Shown here piece by piece: positions 1,639 to 4,796 of a stretch of DNA of 42,918 nt. Below the pieces are notes generated by a model that saw only the letters and a program-made list of their open reading frames with translations, had not been told where the DNA came from and ran no database searches. Where the stretch lies: NCBI GenBank assembly GCA_025726505.1, contig GCA_025726505.1_4340.1, one strand, 5' to 3'. This stretch comes from a phage. The stretch's first letter is position 1. Each line of letters opens with the position of its first letter. A program made the position numbers and the translations under genes.

Positions 1639-1973
1639 TTATGTCTCCAGATGTATTGTCGTCTCTGTGGTTTAGTCGGGATATCTTCATATCCCAGCGA
1701 TTTCCAGTAATTAAATAGTCGATTAGCGATAGCTGCACGTTCCTGTGTTTTGAACTCACCGAGGTTCACGGCCTTCCCGTTCTGGAATCCACAGGCGCGG
1801 ACCGCTTTGCGTCTGGCCTGAATCTCGGGGTACAGTGCATTACGGCGTCGCTTATGAATGCGGGTCTTCGCTCTCGGTGACAGCGGCGCAAGGCCGCTTC
1901 GTTTCAGGATGTCAGTTGCGAGGCTTATATTCCGAGAATCTCGCGGGCCATTTCTTCTGTAACTTTCGAACAA
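1635..1973 (-). CDS. Hypothetical Arg/Lys-rich protein (possible nucleic-acid binding)
   Basis: 112-aa basic ORF; only in-frame start is TTG at 1973, 49 nt inside the upstream gene; stop overlaps the HslV-like start. Confidence 0.4.
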   Translation of the reverse strand: MFESYRRNGPRDSRNISLATDILKRSGLAPLSPRAKTRIHKRRRNALYPEIQARRKAVRACGFQNGKAVNLGEFKTQERAAIANRLFNYWKSLGYEDIPTKPQRRQYIWRHK

Positions 1974-2122
1974 GGTTCGTACATTACCTGTTCAGCGAAT
2001 TCTCGTAACTTTGCTTCGAGTTTCAAATAAGCGTCGTATTCCACATAATCTCCGTATGCATACTCAACCATCTCGGGCTCCGGCAGACCCCACGCGTTTA
2101 CCTCGTATCTCTGTACCGTCAC
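1925..2122 (-). CDS. Hypothetical small protein, paralog B of a tandem pair
   Basis: Probable GTG start at 2122 with GGGAGGGG RBS (track ORF extends to 2164); shares VQRY...Y(V/L)KLEA(K/E)L core with the adjacent gene. Confidence 0.5.
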   Translation of the reverse strand: MTVQRYEVNAWGLPEPEMVEYAYGDYVEYDAYLKLEAKLREFAEQVMYEPCSKVTEEMAREILGI

Positions 2123-2295
2123 TCCACCCCTCCCACATGTGTAACTGACCCACAGTTCGCGCACTCGACGTAATCCGGGAACTGGTCTTTGTATTTCTGT
2201 AACTCAGCTTCTAGCTTCACGTAGTCTTCGTATTTAACGTATCCACCGTCAGCGTCCGCTACACAAAACCCGTTATTAGAATATCTCTGTACCAT
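2119..2295 (-). CDS. Hypothetical small protein, paralog A of a tandem pair
   Basis: Probable ATG start at 2295 (track ORF extends to 2301); MVQRY...YVKLEAELQKY plus C-terminal CANCG motif. Confidence 0.5.
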   Translation of the reverse strand: MVQRYSNNGFCVADADGGYVKYEDYVKLEAELQKYKDQFPDYVECANCGSVTHVGGVE

Positions 2296-2297
2296 AA

Positions 2298-2501
2298 TCA
2301 CTTCTCATGTTTACCAAGTCGCTTAGGTGAGCAGATAGCGCGTACCTCTGAATCTATGGGCTTGTCACCCTGGAACAGGAAGTGCGCGTTCTCTGCGGCG
2401 CGTGCCGCTGACTGGCACGCCTCCATCGAGTAAAACGTTTCTGCTGCCGCTAGTTGCATCTGGCCTGTGTACAGTACCCAGATAAAGAGGATGCTGGTCA
2501 T
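2298..2501 (-). CDS. Hypothetical small protein with hydrophobic N-terminus (signal peptide or membrane anchor)
   Basis: 67-aa product from ATG 2501 (ATGA overlap with upstream stop); N-terminus MTSILFIWVLYTGQMQLAAA. Confidence 0.5.
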   Translation of the reverse strand: MTSILFIWVLYTGQMQLAAAETFYSMEACQSAARAAENAHFLFQGDKPIDSEVRAICSPKRLGKHEK

Positions 2502-3034
2502 TCGTAGTGAACCTCTTTTTCTTCTCCGCAAAGCCGGCACTTATTAGTCTCTACCCCGGCGGAATACTGCACTACCCTCCAATCGTGTTTGCATTCCTGA
2601 GTATCGTTTTTCGGTTTATATGCCTTGTCGTCCCACTCACGTTTACCACATTTAGAGCAAAGCTCACTACCAGGAACGTTGTTCGGATTGCCTTCGCTGA
2701 GAAACAACCCAGGCATAATAATCCAAGAGTGCTCGCATTCCTGAACGTCTTCCTTACGGCAACCGGATTGCTCGGGTCCGTGTTCGCCTACTACGTAGCT
2801 CTTCCATTTAGGCAGTGGGCCGCCGTGGTTGGTTACACGGTCGAAGTCCTCATTCATTAGTTTTATTGTTTCCTGCAACTCAGCCACCAGCGCCGAAGCA
2901 TCACGTAACTGGTTCTTGAGTGACAACACCTCATGGGCCAGGTCTTCGCACTGTTGCTTGTAGGGGTTGTTCGTTAGCTGCTGCCGTAGTTGGTTAAGCA
3001 GGAACTCGATTACTGCGTCGTTGTTACTGTTCAT
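2498..3034 (-). CDS. Coiled-coil protein with two tandem zinc-ribbon-like repeats
   Basis: 178-aa product; N-terminal heptad-like region (LLNQLRQQL, LKNQLRDASALVAELQETIKL); internal repeat QECEHSW...CSKCG and QECKHDW...CRLCG. Confidence 0.7.
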   Translation of the reverse strand: MNSNNDAVIEFLLNQLRQQLTNNPYKQQCEDLAHEVLSLKNQLRDASALVAELQETIKLMNEDFDRVTNHGGPLPKWKSYVVGEHGPEQSGCRKEDVQECEHSWIIMPGLFLSEGNPNNVPGSELCSKCGKREWDDKAYKPKNDTQECKHDWRVVQYSAGVETNKCRLCGEEKEVHYE

Positions 3035-3149
3035 CTTCTACCTCCCCGAAGAACGCGCACGCAGTATCTGCATCGCAAATAATTGGTCTGTCTGTTGTCA
3101 CATATGCCGATTGGCTCTCACCCAAAGTCATTTCGCTGTAATTAATCAT
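3024..3149 (-). CDS. Candidate 41-aa leader micro-ORF
   Basis: ATG 3149 preceded by GAGGAGAGAG; stop overlaps the start of the 2498-3034 gene; below the ORF-track size cutoff. Confidence 0.3.
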   Translation of the reverse strand: MINYSEMTLGESQSAYVTTDRPIICDADTACAFFGEVEDEQ

Positions 3150-3180
3150 CTTCTCTCTCTCCTCTCGCTTCGATAACTGA

Positions 3181-3209
3181 ATAGTATTCTATTATATCTG
3201 TGTGTGCAA
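3181..3209 (-). promoter_or_regulatory. Promoter-like element copy A (TTGCAC-N17-TACTAT with internal AATAG-N4-CTATT)
   Basis: Minus strand reads TTGCAC (3209-3204), 17-nt spacer, TACTAT (3186-3181); near-identical to copies at 4359-4387, 25820-25848 and 35100-35128. Confidence 0.5.
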
Positions 3210-3402
3210 GTAAATTTTATTGGTGTTTAGTGTCGCTAATTAACGACAGTTTCGTTGTTGCGATTTCCGCAAGAATCAGCGCCACTGTTGCGTTTCGTGA
3301 AAGTGTCGCCTTTTGACGACACTAAGCTAAAGTTGTACGCTGCTGTGTAGCAGCGTAAGTCACTCAGTCAATTAGTAACCTTTTGACCTGTTACACCACC
3401 TG

Positions 3403-3591
3403 TTATACCGGCGAGGGCGGCTCTGGTAACGGCATCCAGTGAGTAATATCACCGTGATATAAACTCTTTGCGGGACCCCAGTAGCCATCTGAATTAACCC
3501 GCATAACCTCACAGCCGACAAAACCATCAGTTACAAGAACGTATTCGTAAGGCTCCGGCATCCGCTCACTACACTTAATCCACTCGCTCAT
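3403..3591 (-). CDS. DUF551-like phage protein
   Basis: 62-aa product ends ...GDITHWMPLPEPPSPV, the characteristic DUF551 motif as recalled. Confidence 0.75.
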   Translation of the reverse strand: MSEWIKCSERMPEPYEYVLVTDGFVGCEVMRVNSDGYWGPAKSLYHGDITHWMPLPEPPSPV

Positions 3592-4387: not shown

Positions 4388-4634
4388 GAGAATAGTTACG
4401 TTGCCGTTGTGATTCTTCTGAGAAGGTTGTGCCTTTATTCTTATTACTTGGTAACTAAAGGGCAGGCCTTAAGCCTGCCCAATAATCGTTACATTTTTAC
4501 GGTTGCGAATCTACGGCACTTTAAGAAAATCAGATACTTAAGAGATATGCTGCCGATGAGAATAGAGCTTGCCCAGGGCAACCGGAGATACTAAGGAAGG
4601 AAAGTTACAATAATTCGAATGTTCAGTAAACTTT

Positions 4635-4678: not shown

Positions 4679-4767
4679 GTTTTACAAGGTGAACAGGAAT
4701 CAAAGTAACTAAGATATAGAAGCACCTTAAACGAAGATTTTCATAATGTCAATAGGTGCGATTATGT

Positions 4768-4796
4768 TTGATTTCCCATTATTCTCAATGTATACT
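4768..4796 (+). promoter_or_regulatory. Sigma70-like early rightward promoter
   Basis: TTGATT (4768-4773), 17-nt spacer, TATACT (4791-4796), about 30 nt upstream of the first rightward ORF. Confidence 0.45.

Follow-up and report, generated by a model that had tools for sequence, protein, structure and literature searches.

In the tail-fibre and receptor-binding genes of bacteriophages, and in the nin/ea “moron” regions of lambdoid phages, conserved modules are swapped at short junctions, and the genes vary in presence and copy number. Closer in kind to the genes considered here are those encoding the EaE-type proteins of P22-like, lambdoid and other enterobacterial phages, which are found in runs of small genes that are not essential and some of whose products open with a head of the form MVxRY...GDYVSYEDYAALEA followed by a coiled coil. 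A further point of reference is Lar, a small accessory protein of phages and prophages, whose family (PF14354) is built on a zinc ribbon with four ligands from two Cys pairs. Here we describe two adjacent small genes, termed A and B, on the minus strand of a 42,918-nucleotide stretch of phage DNA (GenBank assembly GCA_025726505.1, contig GCA_025726505.1_4340.1; the whole stretch is referred to below as the window), whose products are paralogues that belong, on the sequence evidence set out below, to a widespread, unnamed and modular family of small acidic phage proteins.

The A/B family and the EaE-type genes are found in the same kind of gene string, but only the head is held in common, the C-terminal EaE domain (TPATDAFLAEVRAQGV...) being absent from both A and B. 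Full-length relatives with an EaE-like C-terminus do occur in the phages Vi II-E1 and vB_EcoS_swi2 (in swi2 the protein is annotated “Eae protein”), and because EaE is itself without known function, a literature search on that function having yielded nothing useful, the link provides context and no mechanism. The likeness to Lar consists of a weak, sub-threshold similarity centred on the CxxC of the A tail and of the Lar-like profile phrog_3592, which holds the head and coil region; the four-ligand zinc ribbon of Lar, however, is present in neither A nor B. Finally, when set against mosaic tail-fibre and moron genes, the shuffling at this locus differs in taking place inside proteins of 58–120 amino acids that are apparently cytoplasmic, and between two adjacent paralogous slots.

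An old tandem pair and its family

The original prediction for this locus held that two neighbouring minus-strand open reading frames (ORFs) share a core, that one alone retains a CxxC pair, and that the two arose by local duplication and divergence. Both ORFs and the shared core are present as described (MVQRY...YVKYEDYVKLEAEL in A and TVQRY...YVEYDAYLKLEAKL in B), and the CxxC (C45 and C48) is indeed confined to A, the sole Cys of B (C51) being aligned with C48 of A. Paralogy by duplication has held up as well. BLASTP aligns the two products over nearly their full length (E=5e-9, 34% identity), and their Smith–Waterman score of 76 compares with a mean of 22.9 (standard deviation 4.4, maximum 51) for 20,000 double shuffles, equivalent to z ~12. 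The prediction was to be abandoned if the similarity proved no greater than in shuffled controls; not one of the 20,000 shuffles reached the observed score. Among the 508 ORFs of at least 40 amino acids in the window, A and B are each other's only strong match, the next best scores being 38–44, and a profile search of the window found no third copy of the N-terminal domain. Comparison of the DNA gives a single identical run of 12 nucleotides, GGTACAGAGATA, at the two gene starts and a poor alignment elsewhere, and this near-complete divergence indicates that the duplication is old.

Two short, acidic, helix-rich peptides whose DNA likeness is almost nil might be thought to resemble one another by chance or by composition. 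This explanation is contradicted by the shuffle test and by the lack of any comparably close ORF in the window, by the fact that a single N-terminal profile recognizes both proteins (E=3.3e-14 for A and 1.4e-16 for B), and by the occurrence in relatives of identical heads on either tail. By these comparisons chance is excluded, and A and B are evidently true, ancient, protein-coding tandem paralogues. What proved too simple in the prediction is the picture of a local duplication that merely diverged, given that the DNA has diverged almost wholly and that head and tail modules have been exchanged between the two slots.

The family was assembled from a search of 5.8 billion proteins, in which relatives clustered at 90% identity gave 374 clusters for A and 33 for B, those listed lying largely on contigs of ~44 kb; no Pfam domain was found among the listed relatives of either protein. 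Alignments were made of 106 A-type proteins, of 44 mixed proteins, and of the genes of 38 IMG/VR loci for which the downstream gene served as anchor. The architecture that emerges has three parts: a head, a helix with an optional insert, and an interchangeable tail. The head occupies ~25–45 amino acids at the extreme N-terminus, is predicted to form a small beta-sheet, and consists of MVQRY, a hypervariable loop, and then G-x-[YW]-V-x-Y; the loop runs to ~10–22 residues, cannot be aligned between classes, and falls into 28 clusters at 55% identity. An amphipathic helix begins at E-D-Y-x-x-L-E (EDYxxLE) and is lengthened in one quarter of the A-type proteins by a coiled-coil insert of ~25–32 amino acids, of which there are at least three unrelated types. 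Tails comprise type A (CxxC...H), type B (a predicted helical hairpin) and at least four others. Across the 106 A-type sequences only loop residues 6–17 are variable; Y22, D24 and Y25 are invariant, and tail A (AELQKYKDQFPDYVECANCGSVTHVEGVE) is almost so, with C45 and C48 invariant and H53 conserved in at least 90%.

The head extends well beyond this group of phages. An exhaustive search of 1.84 billion representative proteins with the profile of the mixed alignment (E≤1e-3) returned 263 matches, and beyond the genus Kagunavirus, to which the closest relatives of the locus belong, most of the 150 listed matches cover only profile positions 1 to ~44, that is, the head and the first helical turns. 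In the listed matches the alignment nearly always begins no more than a few residues from the N-terminus, and what follows the head at the C-terminus is very diverse: plain coils, EaE-like domains, zinc ribbons and a domain with the pattern GWIEWGGGECPV…DIIAYRVV (phrog_9174), among others. In four proteins the head is present twice in tandem, which indicates that tandem duplication is recurrent in the family. Net charge is negative in 98% of the 122 distant matches examined (mean −8), and the distant members lie in strings of small unannotated genes adjoining ERF/DUF3799 recombination/exonuclease, DNA methylase or HNH genes, a typical accessory, early-type context. In a head alignment of 84 sequences that includes both A and B (profile A4, the source of the E values given above), R5 and G24 are invariant and Y6, V27, Y29, D31, Y32 and L35 are conserved in at least 90%; both proteins carry the defining pattern of an N-terminal R, Y...G-x-[YW]-V-x-Y-x-D-Y-x-x-L and then a helix.

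Existing classifications capture this family in fragments. Of the 84 heads, 33 match phrog_29624, and there are also matches to phrog_3592, 22955, 23083 and 37174. A matches phrog_29624 (“unknown function”) from end to end (E=2.4e-29, residues 1–58 to profile positions 1–60 of 60) and B may belong to phrog_37174 (also “unknown function”), which it matches over its tail (E=0.0052, residues 23–64 only), such that the division between the two PHROGs hides a common head and interchangeable parts. In ~100 Guernseyvirinae genomes the A/B orthologues are labelled “hypothetical protein”, the only name that a cluster look-up returned for the distant relatives as well, and Pfam and NCBIfam scans of A, B and the distant relatives gave nothing above threshold. 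Several candidate identities were considered and set aside. DUF2480 (PF10652), the name given to the B orthologue in phage fBC-Eco01, scores 12.9 bits with B (E=0.099, over 28 residues) against a cut-off of 25 bits, and the polymorphic-toxin immunity families Imm41 and Imm70 score 12.3 and 14 bits against cut-offs of 26.9 and 26.7. A profile search of the PDB gave only residues 305–342 of a GH18 chitinase (6kst_A, E=0.011), judged a chance beta-beta-alpha look-alike; its likeness to the head probably reflects convergence on a strand-strand-helix motif rather than common descent. A tblastn search of GenBank phages with an artificial consensus of the head gave no match, probably owing to the filtering of low-complexity sequence.

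Exchange of heads and tails

The 28 head clusters are combined with at least six tail types, and one and the same head is found on differing tails. The head of the B protein described here (EVNAWGLPEPEM…) occurs on tail B (20 cases), tail A (4), tail A with an insert (7), type 3 and type 5, and the head LLQGGLIGPHD… occurs in five tail categories. One locus (L025) carries an A–B fusion composed of a head, an insert, the A helix and the B tail. The exchange also reaches the upstream gene encoding the phrog_6094 protein: tail A is followed by a C-x-H…CxxC zinc ribbon resembling the phrog_6094 repeats in P0008, P0047, P0155, L035 and L038, and the N-terminal coiled coil of phrog_6094 is joined to tail B in P0153 and to tail A in P0179 and L011. 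Fusion of phrog_6094 modules to both tails delimits a mosaic zone of ~1.1 kb (1925–3034). Short patches of DNA are conserved at both gene starts (ATGGTACAGAGATA), at the YEDYAKLEAE core (TACGAAGACTACGCGAAACTCGAAGC) and at the A/B junction, and the core DNA is moderately conserved across head classes. These patches are probably sites of homologous exchange of heads and tails, both from slot to slot and from phage to phage, with the core of A a likely head–tail recombination junction.

The original prediction had proposed a survey of copy number in related genomes. In such a survey the number of copies ranged from 0 to 2, and a subset of the relatives has A followed by B. Of the 38 loci, 8 have no copy, 18 have one and 12 have two. 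In seven of the eight loci without a copy the absence is clean and the flanking genes directly adjoin one another, and the eighth (L011) retains a tail alone, fused to the upstream gene. The existence of relatives with 0, 1 or 2 copies marks the locus as dispensable, as judged from gene content. Where there are two copies, slot 1 always ends in …HVEGVE, the DNA of which contains the ribosome-binding site for slot 2, and in no case is the same head present in both slots. At one locus (L027, 2658–3004), the slot 1 head is truncated (MRVRYSDLMALEAELQKYK...) and slot 2 holds an unrelated 88-amino-acid Cys-rich ORF that ends in a B-like helix (...AESLARKILEGVK).

It had also been proposed that such duplicated genes evolve under diversifying selection. 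In the sense of an excess of amino acid substitution, this is not borne out. In the IMG/VR loci, the ratio of nonsynonymous to synonymous polymorphism (pN/pS) is 0.10 in the A tail (pS 0.23), 0.22 in the B tail and 0.09 in full-length B proteins of the head type found here, with pS at ~0.23–0.27. Within classes, the head loops have pN/pS of 0.00–0.21 in five of the six classes (0.21 for the B head loop), with a value of 0.68 in one class of three sequences, and the six classes thus give no sign of point-mutational positive selection on the loops. Conservation of the loops within each class means that they are not free-drifting linkers. Head diversity at this locus, as read from these alignments, is a matter of discrete, old, individually constrained alleles that have been redistributed by recombination, a pattern that is compatible with a role in host interaction without being proof of one. 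The idea that a diversity-generating retroelement or shufflon generates the variety of heads was considered but rejected, in that the alleles differ in length, there is no template copy, and the changes within classes are mostly synonymous; no reverse transcriptase or invertase gene was noticed in the window, though the window was not scanned for them.

The two genes in their setting

A stretch of 1 kb around A and B matches 253 GenBank phage records, the best of which (84–92% identity) come from Escherichia phages such as Schulenburg, fEg-Eco19 and Snoke, all assigned to Kagunavirus (Guernseyvirinae). At 42.9 kb the window approaches the length of a complete genome of such a Kagunavirus-type siphophage of E. 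coli. The features of the locus are collected in Table 1.

Table 1. Features of the A/B locus and its surroundings, with positions in the window
Feature	Position	Strand	Description
Gene A	2119..2295	minus	58 amino acids; ATG at 2295, TGA at 2121-2119; tail type A
A hypervariable head loop	2245..2280	minus	residues 6-17, SNNGFCVADADG; one of the 28 loop clusters of the family
A conserved core	2209..2247	minus	GGYVKYEDYVKLE, residues 17-29; final strand of the head and first part of the helix
A tail	2122..2208	minus	AELQKYKDQFPDYVECANCGSVTHVGGVE, residues 30-58; nearly invariant; CxxC at 2152-2163
Gene B	1925..2122	minus	65 amino acids; GTG at 2122-2120, TAA at 1927-1925; tail type B
B head loop	2051..2104	minus	EVNAWGLPEPEMVEYAYG, residues 7-24
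B conserved core	2015..2053	minus	GDYVEYDAYLKLE, residues 24-36
B tail	1928..2014	minus	AKLREFAEQVMYEPCSKVTEEMAREILGI, residues 37-65; predicted helical hairpin
Small ORFs	4324-3403	minus	upstream part of the leftward string
Intergenic gap	3150-3400	minus	~250 nucleotides, between 3403 and 3149
Hairpin GCTGCT-ACAC-AGCAGC	3339-3354	minus	in the intergenic gap
Hairpin GTGTCGTC-AAAA-GGCGACAC	3303-3322	minus	followed by TTTCAC; in the intergenic gap
Promoter-like site	3214-3186	minus	TTTACT, 17 nucleotides, TAGAAT; in the intergenic gap
Small ORF	3024-3149	minus	
Coiled-coil/zinc-ribbon protein	2498-3034	minus	178 amino acids; phrog_6094
Protein with hydrophobic N-terminus	2298-2540	minus	~67-80 amino acids; phrog_3766; likely start M14, ~2501
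Protein downstream of B	1635-1973	minus	97-112 amino acids; phrog_9632
HslV-like peptidase	1198-1638	minus	phrog_1040, E=9e-33; directly upstream of the holin genes
Two holin-like genes and endolysin	99-1138	minus	

The stop codon of A is overlapped by the start of B as GTGA, and the Shine–Dalgarno sequence of B, GGGAGGGG, lies at 2134–2127 within the 3′ end of A. The start codon of B in relatives is an ATG (…GGVMVQRY) that reads ACG here (region 2117–2124, minus strand), and with this codon lost the start in this phage must be the GTG one codon upstream, which follows GGAGG by 6 nucleotides. The Shine–Dalgarno sequence of A (region 2296–2310, minus strand) is likewise altered, being CATGAGAAG here and CAGGAGAAG in nearly all relatives, a G-to-T change, such that the start signals of both genes are weaker than in nearly all relatives. 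Public gene calls contain exactly the 65-amino-acid GTG-start B product and the 58-amino-acid A product; the identical A protein is present on 20 contigs and the identical B on 2. Both products are acidic (isoelectric point 4.55 for A and 4.29 for B), and no signal or membrane segment was evident when the sequences were read by eye, no predictor having been run. The AlphaFold model of B has a predicted local distance difference test score (pLDDT) of 81, with strands at 6–10 and 17–20 and helices at 29–47 and 53–63 (pLDDT ~92 in the helices). The model of A is a hairpin, a helix (22–38) and a second hairpin at pLDDT 60, a low value that would be expected if folding requires a partner or a metal.

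The phrog_6094 protein has an N-terminal coiled coil and two C-x-H...CxxC zinc-ribbon-like repeats (QECEHSW...CSKCGKRE and QECKHDW...CRLCGEEK), and relatives differ widely in how long the coil is and in the number and sequence of the ribbons. The phrog_3766 protein (~67 amino acids and conserved) has two conserved Cys and a hydrophobic N-terminus that closes with ...LAAA/ETF, and looks by eye like a small secreted protein; it is present in most related loci with listed gene content (L014 and L027 have fragments only), while A and B come and go. An HslV-family peptidase-like gene is found in this phage and some relatives and is absent at this position in Schulenburg. A small ORF at 3403–3591 (minus strand) carries the pattern W...THWMPLPEPP, typical of DUF551-type phage proteins, and has many length variants in relatives.

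The leftward string begins near a divergent promoter region at ~4760–4790, with a leftward promoter-like site at 4788–4761. About 280 nucleotides downstream of that site, and upstream of the first small gene, is a strong GC-rich terminator-like hairpin (GGGCAGGCTTAAGGCCTGCCC then TTTAG, 4460–4480, minus strand), which could be an attenuator or early terminator. The hairpins and promoter-like site at 3186–3354 could in turn be a terminator and promoter pair splitting the string, and the Schulenburg annotation places one terminator inside this gene string and another after the endolysin. Together, the gap elements and the Schulenburg terminators suggest that A and B may belong to a separate unit that reads into the lysis genes. 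The placement of A and B in an “early operon”, as originally predicted, is therefore not established: they lie downstream of the hairpin- and promoter-containing gap, and the string runs into a holin/endolysin cassette.

Possible roles

Taken as a whole, the locus is best explained as modular tandem paralogues acting as accessory host-interaction adaptors, a reading to which we would give an even chance of being right. Its two halves deserve different degrees of trust. We are highly confident of the descriptive half, namely that these are small, acidic, dispensable and modular proteins in which a constrained head drawn from a set of hypervariable alleles is joined to a conserved tail. The functional half, in which A and B would be adaptors or inhibitors whose head confers specificity, is offered tentatively and may well be wrong. 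It would run as follows: the proteins would act as oligomers that bind a host (or phage) protein, with the helix, which heptad-rich inserts lengthen in many relatives, as an oligomerizing stalk; the choice among variable targets would fall to the head loop; and a constant function or partner would come from the tail. The CxxC of tail A, lone and invariant, might pair across two chains to bind zinc. An analogy for such an arrangement is the Rad50 zinc hook, where a lone CxxC ends a coiled-coil helix and two chains together could give four Cys to one Zn ion; there is no relationship in sequence or fold. Both the genomic surroundings and the link to EaE-type “ea” genes are in keeping with an accessory role in host takeover or counter-defence, not an essential one.

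The order of genes invites another view, that A and B control when or how the holin/endolysin cassette, which follows on the same strand, acts. From A and B the string continues through the phrog_9632 gene, the HslV-like peptidase and the two holin-like genes to the endolysin with no strong terminator found between, and the promoter-like site and hairpins lie upstream of the whole. Yet 8 of the 38 related loci do without an intact copy, 7 of them cleanly and with the flanking genes kept, distant members sit in early-type strings away from lysis genes, and reading the two sequences by eye revealed no clear membrane or signal segment; we consider a lysis role very unlikely. Simple decay, with A and B as remnants that are translated poorly or not at all in this phage, would account for the altered Shine–Dalgarno sequence of A and for ACG in place of ATG in B, but both frames are intact, B has a GTG start 6 nucleotides behind GGAGG, identical copies of A and of B recur on other contigs, and purifying selection is family-wide, which makes decay highly improbable.

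Restriction alleviation is a further alternative, according to which A and B would modulate a type I restriction-modification enzyme in the manner of Lar/Ral proteins such as the Lar of the Rac prophage. The isolated N-terminal domain of 8 of the 84 family members matches phrog_3592, named “Lar-like restriction alleviation protein”, with a best E of 2e-6; the A tail weakly matches the Pfam family PF14354 (Lar_restr_allev; E=0.1, 13.3 bits); and P0155, a relative in which tail A is followed by a zinc ribbon, matches it at E=0.009 (16.7 bits). However, every one of these Pfam scores is far below the gathering cut-off of 28.6 bits, and membership of PF14354 was rejected for A and likewise for B, which gives no match. 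Neither protein matches phrog_3592 directly, the four-ligand ribbon is incomplete (one CxxC and His53 in A, one Cys in B), and the PHROG name may stem from the ribbon fused to some members and not from the head. Moreover, the Kagunavirus isolates of the BASEL collection, several of which have A/B genes, are reported to be highly sensitive to restriction-modification systems (PMC11990801). We judge a Lar-type function to be very improbable. A/B content was also considered as the cause of the block to Bas74–76 by K-12 cryptic prophages and dropped, the BASEL paper crediting O-antigen glycosylation and tailspike type.

Returning to the adaptor reading, its fullest form would make the “MVxRY head” an undescribed, widespread phage domain in which a binding loop is displayed on a mini beta-sheet atop a coiled-coil stalk. 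The Kagunavirus slots would recombine heads (specificity) with tails (effector or partner, one of them possibly a CxxC zinc clasp) and so retarget small inhibitors of host defence or host factors with no dedicated diversification machinery. This is conjecture, and we think it unlikely to be correct in full.

It is important to stress that in themselves A and B are ordinary paralogous mosaic accessory genes of a virulent siphophage, annotated as hypothetical everywhere. The wider interest lies in the head, a recognizable domain with no Pfam or PDB entry that links several PHROGs and ~260 clusters at 50% identity, and a name for it would bring order to how many small phage ORFs are annotated. 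The locus is also a clean experiment of nature, in which discrete head alleles, each conserved, have been moved onto a tail that hardly varies. Because Kagunaviruses are small and proposed chassis for synthetic biology (PMC11990801), head swaps and the natural relatives carrying 0, 1 or 2 copies could quickly show whether host defences are what these proteins target.
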